A stretch of DNA of 62,150 nucleotides, filler included, from Globobulimina sp. (lineage: Eukaryota), in assembly GCA_003354225.1 (NCBI GenBank). It is 15 parts of 15 records of this genome, joined end to end, with 100 filler letters (N's around TTAATTAATTAA, not from the genome) between each part and the next. Parts side by side here need not be neighbours in the genome. Positions count along the whole stretch, not along the records: positions 29,069 to 33,120 come from PIVH01001684.1; 14 more parts are not named here. One strand, given 5' to 3'. Made by a program: the position numbers and the translations under genes. Below the pieces are notes generated by a model. The model searched no databases, had not been told where the DNA came from, and was given only the letters and a program-made list of their open reading frames with translations. Shown here piece after piece: positions 6,143 to 53,022 of this stretch; within the stretch, counting starts at the first letter, position 1; each line of letters opens with the position of its first letter.

Positions 6143-7171
6143 TTATGTATTTAACCACGAATTTTTAAGTATTTGCGTGATTGAAAAACGTTTTTGCACA
6201 TCAAATAGCAGCATATTCTTCAAAAGTCGGTACATTTGATGTGTAATAATATAATCTGCTTTTAATTGAAATAGATAATTTTGCAGATATTTATCCCCAT
6301 CTCCATTCCGCAATAATTTGTCAAAATAAACCTTATCCCTCCTCCATTTATGCGATGCCACCAACTCTTTGCAATGCACATTTGCAAAGTCTTCGTGTTG
6401 CAACAAATACGGTTGGAAGCCATAATCGACCACGTACAAAATGAGCAAACCAAAGGAAAAAATATCAGCCTTACAACTAATGAACGAAGGATTGTCCGTA
6501 CTGGCTCTGGTCGACATTTCTGGCGCTGTCCAACTTTGTGTACCACGGTAATGTGTCACGCGAAGCGTACCACCATTTTCAATGTTGTCTGTGCTAATTT
6601 TCTTCATTAAGTCATAGTCGATTATGCACCATCTATTTGCTTGATGGTTGAACATAATATTCGAAGGTTTTAGGTCAAAATGTACGCAGTGATGGGAATG
6701 GATTGTATTTAATTGCGTCGCTATTTGGAGTATGAACTTTTTGATCGAAGGCTGGTGATTAATGTAAATGTATCCAGGTCGGGAAAAGCGCAAATTCATA
6801 GTGGCTTTGTTGGGAATTAAATATTTGGATTTCAGCTCGTGCGATAAACGCTGCATTACAATCAATAAACGTTTGTTTTGTAGGTCGTGGTAAAGGCCGT
6901 AGATGTTTAACAGTTTGTGTTGCTGCACAAATAAATAATATTTTACAATGCGTTGTATTGCTCTTGTTTGGCTGCTTAGAGCGATGATCTTCGTCACGAA
7001 CAGGGATTGGTTTTGGGCGCCGGTGTTTGCAGTGTAATGTTTGTTGTTGGTTTGGGGGAAAGTCGTATAAACTTCACCTTGTCCGCCGTCACCAATTTGC
7101 GATGCTAAGTGCCATAATGAGACGAAATCTTGGAATCGTGGCAATAGTCCGGGAGGTGGTGGGCATGACAT
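6143..7171 (-). CDS. Ser/Thr protein kinase (divergent)
   Basis: IGDGGQGEVY, VTK, HFDLKPSNIM, DYD in place of DFG, GTQSWTAPEM, DIFSFG. Confidence 0.9.
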   Translation of the reverse strand: MSCPPPPGLLPRFQDFVSLWHLASQIGDGGQGEVYTTFPQTNNKHYTANTGAQNQSLFVTKIIALSSQTRAIQRIVKYYLFVQQHKLLNIYGLYHDLQNKRLLIVMQRLSHELKSKYLIPNKATMNLRFSRPGYIYINHQPSIKKFILQIATQLNTIHSHHCVHFDLKPSNIMFNHQANRWCIIDYDLMKKISTDNIENGGTLRVTHYRGTQSWTAPEMSTRASTDNPSFISCKADIFSFGLLILYVVDYGFQPYLLQHEDFANVHCKELVASHKWRRDKVYFDKLLRNGDGDKYLQNYLFQLKADYIITHQMYRLLKNMLLFDVQKRFSITQILKNSWLNT

Positions 7172-7412
7172 ATTGTTTAGTGGTACAACGTCGAAACAAT
7201 GGTGGGAGGAGGTGCTAGTCTGCTAAGATAAAAAACGTCCACCTAAAAAACATTATTGTGTAAATGTGGTTAATGCTATGCAATTCAGCAGTTTATGAAA
7301 ATGTACGGTATTTTTTAGTTGTAGGTGCAGTTTTATATTGAAACAGATAAAAAATTATGTAATTTGAAACATCATCAGAAATTACAAAGACCATCTTTTC
7401 AGGGAGGATTCA

Positions 7413-19112: not shown

Positions 19113-20664
19113 TCAGTATGCGTTAAAATATTTAGCATAGCCCAATTTTTGCAAATCTTTGGTTTCATTAAAATATAAAACATCATTTGCATCTTTCTCA
19201 GTCGCTATTATTTTATGAGACATTATTTTTGAATCAGTTTTTAATAATTTTTTAATTTTCTCTTTATTCTCTTTATCCTGTTTATATAATTGTATTGCTA
19301 TCGATTTTGATTGCTTTCCTAATATTTTATGTTTATAAAATTGTATAATATCATTAAGACTCAATTTGTTTAATATTTGTATATATTTTTGTTTCCATTT
19401 GAAAAAATATGTATGCCCAATAATTTCATCCCAAATAAGTGATGTTTCTTGCGATAATCGCAAATATTTCTGTTTTAAATCATTGACAGTTGCATTGACA
19501 TATAATTTAAATTTTTTCTTGCTCAACTTTAATAATATATTTTTATAATAATGTTGTTCAACAAAATGTTTTATTCGAAAATTTAAATAATTTGCAGATT
19601 TATAACCAGACACAACCATAATTACTAAATAATTTATATTATTTGTAGCGCCAACGGATGATTTACTAAAAGTTGTGGCCACATAACCCAATGATTCCTC
19701 TGTTCGCAGCACCTGAAAACATTCAGATTTCATCATCCGCGCCAATAACAATACTTTGCACGTCTCGATATAGTTATTTTCTACAAACGAATTACCACCA
19801 AATTGATACCAAATTTGGGCCACATCATTTGTATCTTTCTCATTTGTATTATATCCCTGATATATAAATCTATGATATCTCTGTCCTTCGATATTCATCT
19901 CCAATTTCATATGTTCCATTTTGAATAAATTATTTACAAAAACATTTTTATCTTTTGCCTGTTTTATATTTATGCCGCTGCCACGTATCTTTGCCACCAA
20001 ATTAATAACATGTTGCTTATATATATTGCCATGAAATAAGCCTTCAATCAAGAAACCGCTCGATAACACCTCATTTATATAGGACATAATATCGCCGATA
20101 ATGGCATGTTTCGGTGATGATAATAAACCATTTACAATGTCTAACATTAAATTCCTATCATAATGAGGTATTTTAACAATATCATACATAGAAAAATAGC
20201 CTTGGGTCCAGACATGATCATAATTTAAATTCTTATATGTTTTCTGCAATGAAATCAATATATTATGCAATACCTTGTATCTACGCTCAGCTTTATCTCT
20301 ATAAATATGCTGTTTTATATTTACTAAATACACATTGATGAACTCTTCAAACAAAGTGGTTAAATGTTTTTTATTCAACCCCGTAAAGGATAGTACAATG
20401 CCTTGGTGATTTAATGATAACTCAAATGAATATGAGGCGGCAGATACAAATGCGTACCATTCCGAGGAATAAAAATCTATAAATTGCAGCCATATCTCTG
20501 CATAGATTCCATTAATGGGTTTATCGTATATTAATGGAGAGAGTAACAAGAGATTTATATTTATTCGCGGACTGCCAAACTTATTGTCTCCTTTGTACCA
20601 AATATTCATCGATGGCTCTTTGATTAATAATATTGCTGAAATTGCAAATTTATCTCCTTTGTTT
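19113..20664 (-). CDS. Insulysin/pitrilysin-like M16 metallopeptidase, C-terminal half
   Basis: IWYKGDNKFGSPR and FQVLRTEESLGYV motifs. Confidence 0.85.
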
Positions 20665-20764
20665 NNNNNNNNNNNNNNNNNNNNNNNNNNNNNNNNNNNN
20701 NNNNNNNNTTAATTAATTAANNNNNNNNNNNNNNNNNNNNNNNNNNNNNNNNNNNNNNNNNNNN

Positions 20765-28968: not shown

Positions 28969-29195
28969 NNNNNNNNNNNNNNNNNNNNNNNNNNNNNNNN
29001 NNNNNNNNNNNNTTAATTAATTAANNNNNNNNNNNNNNNNNNNNNNNNNNNNNNNNNNNNNNNNNNNNCCTCACTCAAACTCCATGACTTCGTCATGTTG
29101 AGTTTTATTATAGCGACTAGATCACAGTCGATCACATTTATTACGTGGCAGTACCTCTTGTTAATTTTGGATTCGTTTATTAGTGGTGTGAAGGC

Positions 29196-31024
29196 TTGAA
29201 TCACTTATTTGATTTTAATACGGTTCACGAGACCCCCATCAATATTATTTTTGATGAATATGATTTTCAGCTCGGTCGTCATAGAAAAGACGTGTCAAAT
29301 ATTCAGTTCACGTCAGATATCCACAAAAGTGATCCGTCGCGTATCCAGATTTTGGAAGTTCAAGTCATATATCATCCAACCCTCAAGAAGTTGGTAAGCA
29401 AAGTCTCACCAAAAAAGACAGATCCCCACGCTTATCTGGATACACATTCCTGTCATCCGGGTTCAACGTTTACTGGCACAATCAATGGGGTCGCACTCCG
29501 TATTCGTTCAACCACTGATGATTGCTATTTAGACGCAGAAATGTATAAATATAAATGTTATTTGATAGCCCGGCATTACGACCCTTTATTAGTTAACACC
29601 ATTTTTAATATGTATGCATCATTGACAAAATTGGAGGCACTTCGTCGATGGAACCCGATGAAGAATGACATTTTACGTTTTAATCATAAGAATATTCGGA
29701 AAACGAACGTTGTTGTCAATAACGATCAGAGCGACAACACCGACGACTCAAAAGATGATGATGCTGCACCTGAATATACGCCGTGTGCACGTTTTATACA
29801 TAAGTTCCATCCGTTGCTTGAAGGTTTGTTTATCACTCTTTTAAAACAGAACTGGTCGAAGTATATTGCTGGAGATGCCATATTGACGACGCTGTTTCCA
29901 TTGTCTTTCTTCGCAGAAACGTGGCAAAGAGCTGGCTTGAATTTGAAAGAAAGACTGACTCCGAATCGATTTTATGACTCTAATCATAAATTAGCTATTT
30001 CGATGGAGCTTTCTCATTTCAGCCGGATGAAACTGACTATGATTGATCATCAATTATTTAATTGTAAGGATTTTATTTCTGATTTACGTCTCCGTGAAGA
30101 TGTTTATATTACCATTGACCACAAGCAATGTCGCCGCGACCTACTGAATGATTGGAAAGGATTCGTTCCGTGCTCTATCTTGAAACAGCGAGGCATCGTC
30201 AGGAATGTCAATGGTTTGTGCAATTGCAATACCACCACTCATTACGCAACCGTTCGAAAGTGGAATTGCCGAAACACCAATGAACTATTTAAGGTATCCC
30301 AGAAGTTATCATGTTTCTCAATGAACATTGTATACATTATTTATTGTGATCGCTGTGCGGATTTCTATGTTGGCAAAGCCGGAGCTGGTATAAATAATAC
30401 CCGCTGTTTACGTGATCGTAATAACGAGCACACGAAGAATATCTTGGATGTTTATAAAACATTGAATTCGCGCTCATTCTATGATGAAAATGGCATTATT
30501 CAGCAGCACAACTCATTAATTTTGAAGGGGATTATTAATACGATAATCGCGCAGAGCTATACCCGTGAAATCTTACATTTACTGGGTTGGATGGCACAAA
30601 TTGTTATAAGTTCAATATGAAAGATCCTTTGAAATTTTATAGGATATTCGCATTACGGCAATTTAATGAATTGACTCGCTCCCAATGTGAGGCAAAATTA
30701 TGTGAAAACGAAAAGTATTATCAAGGACAAATGTGCTCAGTTATTAAGGGCTTAAATGGATTAACGGATTTCAAGAAAATTGATACTTTTACGTCGGACT
30801 TTAAGAACAAAGTCAATCAAACTATGATCGACATGGAATCAAAATCGTTATTTAATTTTAAGAAAAATACTATGCGATTGCAACAGTATTTGATCGATAA
30901 TAATATTATATTTTCAGATATTTTTAAGGAATCTTTCGATGATTTGACGAATAAATTAGTTGACGACGAACGTGTCCCCATTCTGGACACTCTGCCTATC
31001 GAAATCCCCCATTCTCATCGATAA
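29196..31024 (+). pseudogene. PLE RT-GIY-YIG ORF with a frameshift near 30578
   Basis: Adding one T in CATTTACT restores ILHFTGLDG and joins ORF 29196-30620 to ORF 30587-31024. In-frame TAG at 29181. No catalytic DD motif recognisable. Confidence 0.75.
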
Positions 31025-33090
31025 TTCGCATATATCCATTAACTCATTCGACCCATTTAATACTACTATGAATATTGATTCAGATTTTGTTTCCAATCCA
31101 GTATCTTTGCTGAACATCAATTCGGACATTGATAATATTGACCTTTTAATGGATATGGATTTGGATTTGAGCTCTGTCTCCGATCTCAATCAACTACACA
31201 ATCCTTCCAATTCTGTGGATAATTTCATGGCACATTTTCAATATCAACGTGAGATGTGGTTGAAAATGGTGGACCGTAATCAAATGCCTATCCATCAGAT
31301 TGATACCTATGATCCAAATACATTACCCATTCTCCCGTCGCGTGTCTCTGATTATATTCATCCTTTTACCCAATCCCCACAGAAAGATATTGGCCTTTTT
31401 CAAGAAGAATTATCATTTAGAGAATAAAAATAGAATAATCTGTGATACGCTGCATAACGATGATCTTTCTCATTTAAACGACCATCAATTACGCGAAAAT
31501 ATTAATGTTCAGTTACTGAACAATGATTTGTCGCCAATTATATCTCCTTCCACGAGAGAGAAACGTGTATTGATGGACTTATTTCTCTGCCACAATAATT
31601 CTGATCTCACTGATTCTTTATTTGACGCATTAAATCCACCCAAGACTCCACCATCAGAGCTGTTTGATGACAATGTCTCTGACAACCTCAACCTGTATCT
31701 ATCCAACGCTCTGTCACCACTCACACGATCACAAGATGTCGCTATACATCAACGTGTGCCCGCTGCGGATATGCATATCAATATTGGAGACAGTCTTGTC
31801 AATGTCAATGAAGTTAGTAACATACGCACCGCATCCCGTCCTCTTCGGTTTATACCTTCCACGAATACGGCTCCTTTGTACTTGGAATCCATTGCCGAAG
31901 CTCCGATTATTTCCCAACAGTTCGCCAACAATTCGCAGTCTATTCAAGCCCCAAAGCAGTCAATACCAACACATCTATTATCTATTAATCGTATTAGTAA
32001 TACAAACATCCATCGTAATGTTACATTATCGCCATCGCGGTTAACTCGATTACAGCCACAACCACATATTCCTACATCAGTCGCTTTGCAACAAAATACA
32101 TCCACCCAACTACGTAATGCGTTTCGTCAGTTCCGTGCTGACATTTTGAGTGATAATATTTCACCCACTGATGATTTACGACCGACGCAGTCCATATCTA
32201 TTGACGCTCAGCCTGTAATTTCATTGTCTCAAAACTCTGATTTCATTCGGTTTCATGACGATATTTGCGATGGCGCTGTCACACAAAGTCGGCCGTGGAT
32301 GGTAACTTCGATAATGTTCAATTCACAGCATTTAAGGACCGATGGCTTCTTCATGACCAACCAGAGCGAGCTAGACGTTTATTTCATGATTTTTATGACT
32401 CTGGCATTGATGTTCATGATTTAGAAGAATTAGTGGAATAACACCCAATTAAATTAGATTTGCATCTATTTATTTTATTTGCAATTTGAGTTTTTGATTT
32501 GTAGACAATACAATTATTATTATTTTTAGTTTTGTTCATATTACAATTAATTGTCTGTCTATGTGTTTATTAGTATGTCATTGTATCAATTCTTTATCAT
32601 TACTTCCTTATCTTTTATTTTTATTTGTATAATTTAGTTTTGTTTTGTAAACCTATCTTGAATAATCTTTTGATGTTATCTTTATTATGATTTTTTTCTT
32701 TGATGGTTTATCATATCCAATACTGATTTATCTGTGGCATACTGTTTTATTATATGTAGTGTTGATTTTGTGTATTAACTTATGGTTTTTGTGTCTTTCT
32801 AATATATTTTTGTTTTTCCACAGTCTTATTTGATTATTGTTTTTATTTATTTTTGTGATATCCACTTTATTTATAATCTTTTTGATTGTGTGACTTTTGA
32901 TGTTTGTCCAAACTCCATATTTGATATATGTTTATTATTCACATTGCATTCTCCATCATTTATATGTTATTATTTTTTACATCTATTCATCTATTCCTTT
33001 ATTCCTTTCTTTTTATAACTTTCTACACATTGATAAAACTTTTTAGTTTATGTTTTTCTTTCAGAAAACATTTTAACTTTAATTTCAACT

Positions 33091-33120
33091 TTGTCCTGAC
33101 GAAGGCAGCATTTGCCGAAA
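33091..33120 (+). ncRNA. Hammerhead ribozyme core (type I, PLE-associated), truncated by the contig end
   Basis: CTGACGA (33096-33102), A, stem II GGCA/TGCC with loop GCATT, then GAAA (33117-33120). Confidence 0.8.
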
Positions 33121-48268: not shown

Positions 48269-49366
48269 CTATTGAACACGTTTCATTAGTTTCACAAAAC
48301 AAATATTGTTTTCTATTGAATTTTGTTCATATTGATCAGTATATTCTACCTCGAAATCACCATAACCTCTGACAGTCAGATCAGCAATGCACTCAAAACC
48401 ATGTTCAGACCATTTATCTGACAAAATATCCTCAAACATACAGGAAAGTTTATACGTAGACACTGTTTGTAACGTATTAACGATCAAGAAATATCCATTT
48501 GGTTTTACCAATTCCATCAAACACTGCACTGCTTTAGATCCTGGTGAATAATCATTGCCATATGTCATTTGTAAGCAATCTGACGATACAATAATGTCAT
48601 ATAATTCATCTCGTTGTATACGATTAATATCAGATTCATTGCATAAATCAATATCCATTTTATACCGATATGAATCATCCATTTTAATCCTACCTAAACT
48701 AGTCCGTGATCTATCAATTCCATCAACGTTGATTTTAGTGCAATCCATCATTATGTCAGTTAATTTCCCTCCAAACTCACCAACACCACATCCAACATCT
48801 AATATGTTAATTGTGTTAACGTTTCCGTTCTTGATATGTTCAATTATTTCTTTTGCAATCAATGCGGTAAAAATAGGAGTCCAAGGATGCGTTATATATG
48901 GCCCAATGTTTAAAGTATCCACAAATGTAAACCAAGAGTTACCATCACAAACACCATAATTGATTGAATTATTTCTCTCGTTTTGTGCGTTGAACCATAT
49001 GTCTGTATTCCATGTTGGCGTTGATGCTGCTTTTTGAAATTTGTGTTGTAACCATTGTATTGTGCATTCAGTTTGGATTTCTACTAAATTATTCCACCGA
49101 TGTAGTGTTTTATCCATTTCTGGCAAATCATAATAGGCAGCTTTTATATGTTCTGCTTTTGTGAACTGACCAGGTATGCAGTGTTGTATTGCGTCGATTT
49201 GTTGGATAGATTTGTTGGATAAATCTAGAATTATCTCATTAGAGTTACATGCTGATTCAAATGATATTGGTGCTTTGATTTGTTGTCTATGTTCCATGTT
49301 ACATGAATTAAAATCTATGTGTTGGGTTGCTGACAGTTTGGAGAGGATGTGATGCCACAACGTCAT
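48269..49366 (-). CDS. Class I SAM-dependent methyltransferase
   Basis: ILDVGCGVG, GIDRS, YDIIVS, LVKPNG. Confidence 0.85.
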   Translation of the reverse strand: MTLWHHILSKLSATQHIDFNSCNMEHRQQIKAPISFESACNSNEIILDLSNKSIQQIDAIQHCIPGQFTKAEHIKAAYYDLPEMDKTLHRWNNLVEIQTECTIQWLQHKFQKAASTPTWNTDIWFNAQNERNNSINYGVCDGNSWFTFVDTLNIGPYITHPWTPIFTALIAKEIIEHIKNGNVNTINILDVGCGVGEFGGKLTDIMMDCTKINVDGIDRSRTSLGRIKMDDSYRYKMDIDLCNESDINRIQRDELYDIIVSSDCLQMTYGNDYSPGSKAVQCLMELVKPNGYFLIVNTLQTVSTYKLSCMFEDILSDKWSEHGFECIADLTVRGYGDFEVEYTDQYEQNSIENNICFVKLMKRVQ

Positions 49367-49813
49367 TGTCGCAATAATGAAACGTATAGTCGTATATACT
49401 GTGATGCTATTTGCACTTTGACTACAAAAAAAATTTAATCAAAAACTACAAGGTTGCAATGGGCAATGAAGAATCCCACCCATCATCAGTTATGGATGAC
49501 GCTGCACGCGCGCGTCTACAGCAATTACAAGAACTCCAAGATATATCCTCCAATTACCTCGACAACCTTGAATTTCTTATCGATTCACGCAATACAATGG
49601 ACGATCCACGTGATGTGATAATGATTTTAAAATCTAATCTAAAAACCGCTCGACAAGCCATTGGAAAAACATCAGCCAACTCAATGTTCATAAACAACAA
49701 TAACAGCAACCCANNNNNNNNNNNNNNNNNNNNNNNNNNNNNNNNNNNNNNNNNNNNTTAATTAATTAANNNNNNNNNNNNNNNNNNNNNNNNNNNNNNN
49801 NNNNNNNNNNNNN

Positions 49814-51136: not shown

Positions 51137-53022
51137 ATGGAACTCACAGACATTTTAAATCAAGGTTGGGGTCCAACCGAAGAGACAATCCCATCATTCT
51201 CAGGATTACCATTCACTCCATTCAGCAAACACGATCAGATTAATTTCATCGCAAATTGGGAACCCACCTACAACCGAAGACAGCGCCGCATCCGTACTAA
51301 ATTTGGCGACGATGAAAACGCCGCAGGACTGGGCGTATTTGAAGACAGTGACTTTGAAGATGCCTTCGAAGGCGGCATCACTGTCAAAAAAAGAACATAT
51401 GAAACCATCGCCAAATATAAAAGTTTTGTTTTTTATTATTCATCAAACCCCAACCAACGCATCCTTGCACTCATCGAAACCTCTCAGGAGACCGCACCAA
51501 AGAACAAAACAAGTTGAATTTCAGCCAGCATCGCAACAAAATCAAAGAGCAGCAACGCATTCAAAACGCGCCCATCTCCCGTCGTGGCACTCGGCGCCAA
51601 GTCCAAAACAAACGGCGCCGTAAGAAATATATCGAAAACCAACGGCCCATCGTGCCCTCCATCAAAAAAATCGATGATTGGATCGATTTATCCGACATTT
51701 GGTTCCGGGAGACCTTCGAAGAAGGCTACGGCAACAACAGTGGCCAGAAATATATCTTCAAAATCAACGGCGAAGACTCCATCGGTTTCATCCCAACGCC
51801 ACAGCGCAAACAATTGATATTAGCCGGCACTTTGCATGGCGTCCTGACCAAATACGACATGCTGAACGGCAATACCTACAAACCCGAGCTCTTAGATTAC
51901 GAACGTTTCAGTGACTTCAAATTGTTACATTTCAACTATAAGTCCGCCAGCCAGGACCCCTATATCTTGGAAATAGCGCGCAAAAAGAAAACCGCCGCCA
52001 AGAAAACTGCCGTTTACACCACGGACAACGTGCTCAGTACCATAATGTGCTGCAATCGCAGCAAATATTCGTTCGACATCGTGATCAATAAAATCGGTGG
52101 CAAGATATTCTTAGATGAACGGAACAAGGTTCTATCCAATTATTCGGTGGATGAAACCTCTCAGAATCGACCCACCAGAAAGGGATCGAGCAAAATCAAC
52201 CAATATACCTCGTTGGCGCAGGAGGCCACGTATATTAACCACGTGTTTATGGAGCAGATGGTGTATCATTCCAAGTTGGAGCATACGCAGAGATTACGCA
52301 AAATGCATCCCTTTATTAAGGAGATTGGCGGCCAGAGCAAAGGCGGCAAGAACAAAAAGAAGAATCGCGGCAATAAGTACGGTAAAAACAAGCAGGAACC
52401 GGCGTCGGCTGCGTTTAGTTATAATTCGTACGCAGTGAGTGACAATATTTCGGTGGTCTGTAGGTGCTCCATTGATGGATATGTGGCGCAAAAGAGTGGG
52501 GAGAAAGGGGAGAAGGACTGGGTGAAGATCTATGCATTGAATCAGTATGATTCTAATCGGTCCAAGACGCAGAATTGGATGAAGTATCTGGATACGCGCG
52601 ATTCCACCATATTGTCGCAGGAGATCACGAATAATAATTTTAAATGTGCGCGGTGGGGAATGTGTGCGCATTTATGTGGCGCCAAGCACATTAAGTTGGG
52701 ATTTGTGGCGCGGAACAATGTGCATTCGACGGAGAAACACGTTATTTGTGGCGTGAAGACGTATGATACGACGGATTTTATTCGGAATAAGTTGAGGATA
52801 CGGTCGACCAATGAGCCTTGGACTATATTTGGGAAATTTATCCGTTGTATACAGAATTTGGAGCATGATGGGAGGTATATTGCGGTGCGTGACCCGTTAA
52901 AACAAGTGATTAGAATGTTTAAGGTGTCTCCCGACTCGTTTTCGGAATTGCCGTCTTATGGGTCGCTTATGAAAACATTGGGGATCACTAAGACTAATAC
53001 GGCTAATAAAGAAAAGGAATAA
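51137..53022 (+). CDS. EIF3D: Eukaryotic translation initiation factor 3 subunit D
   Basis: GWGP...PFSK; intron 51423-51487; RSKYSFDIVI, SLAQEATYIN, NNFKCARW, KLGFVAR, RDPLK. Confidence 0.93.

Follow-up and report, generated by a model that had tools for sequence, protein, structure and literature searches.

The last 25 bases of one contig from Globobulimina sp. resemble the core of a hammerhead ribozyme at the 3' end of a Penelope-like element (PLE). This raises the question of whether they are the remains of a ribozyme in the terminal repeat of the element and, if so, what kind of element carried it. The window, meaning the whole stretch of DNA analysed here (62,150 nt), consists of 15 contigs of about 4 kb with N spacers between them, and the contig in question (C1684) occupies positions 29069-33120.

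The motif at the contig end and the element upstream

The last 25 bases of the contig read CTGACGA, A, GGCA, GCATT, TGCC and GAAA on the plus strand, exactly the letters and the strand given in a first-pass annotation. The features of the contig are listed below.

29069-29187, no strand: 5' flank, an unrelated repeat hosting the insertion; no PLE homology before about 29188
29188-30587, plus: ORF piece 1, the C-terminal part of the reverse transcriptase (RT) with thumb, the linker and the first half of the endonuclease (by homology)
30324-30377, plus: GIY-YIG-equivalent motif with CxxC between the halves (by translation and by alignment to the Pfam GIY-YIG region in homologues)
30572-30958, plus: ORF piece 2, after a frame break, the second endonuclease half, in which H, C, E and N are conserved (by tblastn and alignment)
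31008-32441, plus: ORF pieces 3-5, a long, poorly conserved C-terminal tail (by tblastn against the C2939, C1612 and C5610 tails, and by translation)
32442-33090, plus: T-rich 3' UTR, the last ~90 nt of which are conserved among family copies (pseudo-LTR start)
33091-33095, plus: TTGTC, 5' strand of stem I by its place in the family alignment; the partner side lies past the contig end
33096-33102, plus: CTGACGA box (CUGACGA, C3-G8 type), read directly
33103, plus: extra base A between positions 9 and 10.1, read directly
33104-33116, plus: stem II, GGCA/UGCC (33104-33107/33113-33116), with the 5-nt loop GCATT (33108-33112); G10.1-C11.1 pair, family covariation
33117-33120, plus: GAAA box, the last bases of the contig (read directly; family covariance model)

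The CUGANGA and GAAA boxes flank a stem II with a G10.1-C11.1 pair, as in a minimal type I hammerhead, and in the hammerhead of C20244 the sequence TGTC pairs with GACA in stem I. A pattern of CUGANGA, an optional base, a 4-bp Watson-Crick stem and GAAA matched once in the window, while first-order Markov resamples gave a mean of 0.023 matches each and at least one match in 7 of 300. A covariance model derived from 35 copies of the family, the window copy excluded, matched the motif with 27.5 bits (E 1.7e-5) as a 3'-truncated match reaching model position 36 of 46. When the N-padded window was searched, the motif reached only 14 bits (E 0.58) and ranked fourth of 35 matches. A 16-bit match at 29245-29302, inside the ORF, was without stem II and was rejected as a chance match.

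Curated models behaved differently from the family-built one: Rfam, whose models may miss minimal hammerheads, gave no hammerhead in the window (E ≤ 1) and none in 14 loci with complete family copies (E ≤ 10). Folding of single copies showed no excess stability over shuffled sequences (z of -0.66 to -1.42), and the minimum-energy folds were not hammerheads. The lack of an Rfam match and the few resampled windows with such a motif are what would be expected if the motif were a chance match at the contig end. Since the motif occupies the corresponding place in a family of more than 100 covarying copies, this explanation can practically be dismissed.

ORF homology upstream of the motif extends over five pieces separated by four frame breaks. 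Piece 1, which shares 59-67% identity with C342 (aa 1018-1465) and C2939 (aa 261-727), begins downstream of the YRDD catalytic motif, located at aa 1003 of C342. The tail is broken near 30960-31008, 31340-31351 and 32286-32316 and ends with a stop codon at 32439-32441; the hammerhead starts 654 nt after this stop, on the ORF strand. Contigs from a public sequencing run, which may derive from the same reads, showed no indel at the four frame breaks. Because of the 5' truncation past the RT catalytic motif and the four frame breaks, the window copy cannot encode a working RT. The RT/GIY-YIG ORF that had been annotated upstream contains no more than the C-terminal part of the RT and half of the endonuclease, and the element is broken.

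The repeat in the 5' flank is 95% identical over 81 nt to C13023, and contig depth was 68 in the first bin as against 5-11 further along. This repeat (29069-29187) is non-coding, and its other copy (L207:662-742) precedes a tandem array.

Complete hammerheads in the genome and the sequence past the contig end

Searches of the same genome with five patterns gave overlapping sets of matches, with 23, 55, 10, 51 and 101 matches against 0, 6, 0, 0 and 0 for the reversed-pattern controls, respectively. When no downstream constraint was imposed, 17 of the 23 matches proved to be complete minimal hammerheads, 16 with an ACGT and one with an AATT palindrome; the remaining six were the window copy, C5206 and four misfits. 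Hammerheads were found downstream of PLE ORF homology and on the same strand in twelve contigs (C1612, C5610, C924, C1482, C5357, C21084, C385, C2093, C343, C1098, C3881 and C862), which confirms the association of the motif with other PLE copies. The sister elements have the complete motif at the same place, in agreement with the annotation of the window motif as the front half of a minimal type I PLE hammerhead.

To evaluate pairing, motifs with 3 bp or more in stem II and with CG or GC at the centre were taken from 83 loci, which gave 67 different sequences. Of these 67 motifs, 65, 65, 54 and 37 kept pairs 1, 2, 3 and 4 of stem I, respectively. A longer stem I was rejected, since pairs 5 and 6 (21 and 28 of 67) were not above shuffles. 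Among 35 motifs picked by hand from the 67, 91.7% of cells were paired, compared with 62.5% after shuffling and 19-45% with slid partners, although the shuffle controls overstate covariation because the copies are related; eight of nine pairs changed on both sides in these 35 motifs. When positions 3 and 8 were left free, a hand count of 100 listed matches gave 60 U-A, 39 C-G, one U-G and no C-A. Stem II had 4-6 bp in most copies and stem I 3-4 bp, and the palindromes downstream were ACGT, AGCT and, in one copy, AATT.

The hammerheads differ by subclade. Those of subclade A, the window type, have the ACGT palindrome with C3-G8 or U3-A8; those of subclade B (C924) have a longer stem II; and those of subclade C (C1377) combine U3-A8 with AGCT. 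A C at position 4 occurred in two motif sequences of the 67-motif set. Cores with U3-A8 and this C, with intact stems, were seen in C2093, C13724 and C34802. Further minimal hammerheads with unrelated stems and flanks, one of them with AATT, probably belong to other PLE families of this genome.

These results support the view that the window motif represents the 5' half of a type I hammerhead, minimal and of the dimer type, in a PLE terminal repeat, as far as can be judged from sequence. By analogy, hammerheads of this family are predicted to cleave after UH as dimers or with the assistance of a protein. The motif is real, the ribozyme type is already known, and the window copy is dead.

The annotation had further expected stem III, an NUH site and the partner strand of a 5-7 bp stem I just past the contig end. 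A continuation of this kind is present in sister copies, in which the family has only the 4-nt palindrome in place of a stem III and a stem I of 3-4 bp, shorter than predicted. The only other genomic copy of the exact 25-mer, C5206, does not continue in this way: GAAA is joined straight to the terminal motif, and neither a palindrome nor a UH site follows it, so that a refuting case named in the annotation applies to this copy. The C5206 motif scored 19.7 bits with the family covariance model, and its loss looks like a deletion of ~30 nt between two A-runs. A 13-bp inverted repeat was seen in C5206 (L003:1810-1900) right after the short PLE insertion and upstream of a host ORF.

The window copy may likewise have had its hammerhead destroyed before the contig end cut it. 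Besides C5206, the decay of the window element itself and the existence of further broken hammerheads (C5596) speak for this. Two observations with the public sequencing run speak against it. A contig from this run covers 31557-33120 and extends 59 nt past 33120, and a second, C5206-type contig extends 168 nt past 33120; these two have exactly 30 bases in common. If each 31-mer is unique, the base following 33120 in the window copy would differ from that in C5206. In addition, in 19 copies with the palindrome retained, the distance from GAAA to the end of the terminal motif was 35-65 nt (median 51), a spacing into which the 59-nt extension fits, whereas the deleted form of the C5206 type would need fewer than 30 nt. 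We regard a hammerhead already lost in the window copy as unlikely, and the reading as a family hammerhead cut by the contig end is preferred.

Why the contig ends here is a separate matter. The claim that the assembly broke inside a repeated pseudo-LTR is unproven: the last 221 nt of the contig have no near-identical copy elsewhere in the assembly (best 91%), and depth is about 7, which makes a coverage drop-out as likely as a repeat break. A search of the assembly yielded no contig that carries the window copy further.

Architecture, protein and mechanism of the family

The window protein had 85 matches in the genome (89 scored). In the open frames of the family, which are 1,083-1,593 aa long, RT motifs are followed by a linker, a GIY-YIG-like domain and a tail, and the motifs DK, D, GxGxG and Y/F-RDD were recognised in the family alignment. 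A PLE-type RT, with a DKG-like motif and the RT core motifs, is therefore present in the family, while the catalytic core is absent from the window copy. RT is followed by GIY-YIG in one continuous frame in C342, C2939, C1377, C2149 and C924, and in C2939 one frame runs from RT through the endonuclease into the tail. No single contig carried an intact whole element; tiling of C342, C2939 and C1612 gives, by arithmetic, a subclade A ORF of about 2,100 aa or more, with ~700 aa past the endonuclease.

Pfam found neither RT nor GIY-YIG in the proteins of the family itself. A profile search collected 3,042 proteins at E ≤ 1e-10, and when 26 of its matches were scanned with Pfam, RVT_1 was found in 11 and GIY-YIG in 13 (E ≤ 0.01), the latter near the C-terminus. 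A word-indexed protein search with the RT-endonuclease region of C342 gave one match from 3,824 candidates, and PDB sequence searches gave none. A structure model of the endonuclease (pLDDT 79.9) matched I-TevI with Z 8.9 and rmsd 1.9 over 90 of 92 residues, followed by T4 EndoII and UvrC, which are GIY-YIG enzymes. Foldseek with the same model returned nothing at E ≤ 0.001, with I-TevI at rank 2. A model of the combined RT-endonuclease region was discarded as evidence (pLDDT 43; weak RT/polymerase matches only, none at E ≤ 0.001). On its motifs and domain order, the family is a PLE with a C-terminal GIY-YIG endonuclease.

Three details of the protein set the core clade apart. In the zinc finger, with ligands assigned by alignment, CxxC and a His as the third ligand are kept and Cys replaces the expected last His in all seven core-clade rows. 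The linker finger is C-x(about 15)-CxC and not CX2-5CxxC, and the endonuclease has an insert of ~40 aa between the EH and HF motifs. Subclade A ORFs also contain, in their N-terminal part, two Cys/His-rich repeats (CxxC..HxxC..WCxxC), seen at C342 (L059:1419-2200), L064 and L154, which look PHD-like by eye and have no Pfam match. Subclade B has a ZZ-like zinc finger behind the endonuclease (aa 1112-1136 of the C924 ORF; also in P0002 and P0007), which at a Pfam E of 0.011 misses the cut-off.

As for the organisation of the element, head-to-tail junctions were found in C2344, C5041 and C2093, with 100-200 nt between the hammerhead and the start of the next ORF, and C7963 contains the part of a tandem junction from the hammerhead to the ORF start. 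C862 has a unit that is complete apart from an internal deletion, with two 131-nt repeats, identical at 129 positions, and an exact 16-bp flanking duplication in TA-rich tandem repeat DNA. The family thus has the PLE hallmarks of pseudo-LTRs, tandems, 5' truncation and target-site duplication, the last at one locus. The 3' end of subclade A is marked by an AC-rich motif (41 matches against one in the control), and several copies consist of little beyond it. At the 3' end of C5357 this motif is repeated three to four times and shortens stepwise, as repeated RT priming would give.

Layout, covariation, common 3' ends, ragged 5' ends and one target duplication can be seen in the sequences, and the features found are those by which a PLE is recognised; the element probably works like a canonical endonuclease-bearing PLE. 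On the model of animal PLEs, a multimeric RNA would be transcribed through head-to-tail units, two hammerheads would pair via their ACGU or AGCU palindromes or be helped by the element protein, and cleavage would follow GUC, GUU, CUC or CUU. The endonuclease would then nick AT-rich DNA, and reverse transcription would begin at an internal site, the AC-rich motif that follows the hammerhead by about 50-65 nt, as in the PAc element of Anolis. We propose that this internal start would give rise to the common 3' ends, the ragged 5' ends and the target duplications.

Cleavage by the PAc hammerhead is dispensable for insertion in vitro in the experiments reported (PMC11167929). The hammerheads could be passengers, kept by self-cleavage and serving short non-autonomous units or nothing that the element needs. 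C28738 (800 nt) and C33772 (663 nt) are units of this sort, running from hammerhead to hammerhead and made of element ends only, and besides the insertion of PAc hammerhead mutants, Naiads are described as lacking hammerheads (PMC8557442). The three subclades, however, all have their hammerhead in the same position and compensate for base changes in different ways, which suggests long selection in autonomous lineages. The passenger explanation is accordingly rather unlikely, and we favour hammerheads that belong to the working element.

The two short units appear to be retrozyme-like. They keep a decayed piece of the ORF start. Their ends are the 5' and 3' ends of subclade C, and the contig ends are an identical 119 nt, as in a collapsed tandem array or a circle.

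Host, relationships and comparison with known elements

The guess that the host is a foraminifer was supported by a flanking gene and by clade members from related species. A carboxypeptidase gene on C1482, adjoining a subclade A copy, had 34 matches; the five EukProt matches that were named comprise four from Bolivina argentea and one from Diplonema, a 97%-identical match lies outside these five, and the best named relatives among those looked up are from Bolivina argentea. Among the PLE matches, P0003 and P0009 come from Bolivina and P0013 and P0022 from Nonionella stella. Support for the host thus consists of one flanking gene and two transcriptome-type datasets, and the assembly could include other eukaryotes. 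The subclade B protein P0007 (NRA57988.1) is listed under a Phycisphaerales MAG and is probably eukaryotic contamination of this bacterial bin.

An RT tree was calculated from 49 hand-chosen rows, five of them less than half filled, with IQ-TREE in quick mode (LG+G4, midpoint root); it was built without named Neptune, Nematis, Hydra or Penelope/Poseidon references. The elements of this genome together with P0003 and P0022 formed a 15-row clade (SH-aLRT 99), which with P0013 and two unnamed rows formed an 18-row clade (SH-aLRT 99). A FastTree of 142 rows, from which the Nonionella rows were absent, also recovered the core clade. Three deep subclades, about 29-34% identical to one another, coexist in the one genome. 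P0013/P0159 (Nonionella stella), P0034 and P0039 represent a second lineage, sister to the core clade, with the canonical CX4CxxC linker and no endonuclease insert; this lineage is possibly a link to animal-type elements.

Alternatively, a Neptune-like animal element might have given rise to the family by horizontal transfer, as in conifers, or a co-sequenced animal might be the source of the contigs. The hammerheads are of the animal minimal type and not of the type with a long helix III described for protist PLEs (PMC4209133), the start of the endonuclease resembles, by eye, the Neptune and Naiad rows in Fig. S2 of Craig et al. (PMC8557442), and the outgroup proteins have the canonical layout. 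The coexistence of three deep subclades, with Bolivina and Nonionella proteins inside or beside them, points to long residence, and the flanking gene is foraminifer-like. An animal source is doubtful, although an ancient transfer may have taken place; a recent transfer or contamination is unlikely. Taken together, the window most probably contains a dead PLE copy whose 3' pseudo-LTR is cut in the middle of its hammerhead, from an old, diversified lineage that is resident in Foraminifera and has a PLE-like mechanism; we hold this combined reading with considerable confidence.

The hammerheads were compared with the minimal hammerheads of metazoan PLEs, including the U3-A8 variant of Schistosoma Cercyon, as described by Cervera and de la Pena 2014 (PMC4209133). 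Both have type I topology, the extra base between 9 and 10.1 (a described trait of the PLE type), G10.1-C11.1, a palindromic 15.2-16.2, a short stem I, a location in pseudo-LTRs, many dispersed single copies and U3-A8 covariation (PMC4209133). Unlike them, the present family has a protist host, a majority of U3-A8 (60 of the 100 listed matches), three palindromes, two motifs with C at position 4, and a stem II of 4-6 bp in most copies where metazoan ones have 7-8 (PMC4209133). The protist PLE hammerheads covered in that source work as monomers.

With the PLEs that have a C-terminal endonuclease, namely Neptune, Nematis, Penelope/Poseidon and Hydra (Craig et al. 2021; PMC8557442), the family shares a single ORF with RT followed by GIY-YIG, CxxC between the GIY and YIG halves, pseudo-LTRs, tandems, 5' truncation and the hammerhead. 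It differs from them in its foraminiferan host, its very long ORF and the extra residues between EH and HF. The CCHH finger of Neptune, Nematis and Penelope/Poseidon is altered, the last His being Cys, and the CX2-5CxxC linker of Neptune and Nematis is absent from the core clade, although Nonionella P0013, outside it, has CX4CxxC (PMC8557442). Because these two features are absent, we did not file the family under Neptune or Nematis. The Nematis rows labelled C4, Pp and Cr are presumably from nematodes. These labels are those of Fig. S2 of Craig et al., in which the Neptune and Naiad rows are, by eye, nearest to the stretch leading into the endonuclease (PMC8557442). The family is distinct from Naiad and Chlamys, whose GIY-YIG is N-terminal, while its own endonuclease follows the RT, and from the telomeric, endonuclease-lacking Coprina and Athena, since it has an endonuclease and its copies adjoin ordinary genes.

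PAc, the Poseidon-type element of Anolis (Frangieh et al. 2024; PMC11167929), likewise has a pseudo-LTR hammerhead followed by an AC-rich site that ends the copies. The PAc ORF begins within the hammerhead and includes the copy end, unlike that of the present family, in which the ORF starts after the hammerhead and the copy end comes before the ORF. The non-LTR retrozymes reported as PLE derivatives by Li et al. (bioRxiv 10.64898/2026.07.22.740005) resemble C28738 and C33772 in being short hammerhead-to-hammerhead units from PLE ends; the latter differ in their protist host and in the retained, decayed ORF start.

The unusual part is therefore the element clade and not the ribozyme, and the window copy alone is of little interest; what looks unexpected is the layout of the element in a probable foraminifer. 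According to Craig et al. 2021, PLEs with a C-terminal endonuclease are confined to animals except for a single transfer to conifers, a restriction on which these authors base their scenarios of origin (PMC8557442). A search of their supplement for five foraminifer or Rhizaria terms gave no match. In the available text of a 2025 Ectocarpus paper, only Chlamys-type PLEs are new to the TSAR group (PMC12477816); PMC13159263 deals with endonuclease-lacking Coprina, and in PMC13421374 PLEs appear solely in a reference. No report of a foraminiferan or rhizarian PLE was found in the literature searched, to which subscription journals, Repbase and preprint supplements did not belong.

We tentatively suggest, as a proposal that falls slightly short of an even balance, that Foraminifera own an ancient, hammerhead-bearing clade of C-terminal GIY-YIG PLEs distinct from all named ones in its CCHC finger, linker, insert, ORF, U3-A8 hammerheads and retrozyme-like derivatives. 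If this is true, the fusion of RT and endonuclease with dimer-type hammerheads would not be an animal invention, and would predate the split of animals and Rhizaria or have arisen or moved very early. A diversified foraminiferan clade would be a direct test of the origin scenarios of Craig et al. Because neither Pfam nor Rfam recognises the family, elements like it may go unnoticed in other protists. The one genome also offers a natural series of hammerheads (C3-G8 and U3-A8; ACGT, AGCT and AATT), with which it could be tested whether palindromes prevent pairing between subfamilies and whether the element protein is required by minimal hammerheads.

Other contigs of the window carry genes for a RING/RanBP zinc-finger protein (788-1999), a protein kinase (6143-7222), an M16 peptidase (19113-20708), a methyltransferase (48269-49438) and eIF3d (51421-53022).
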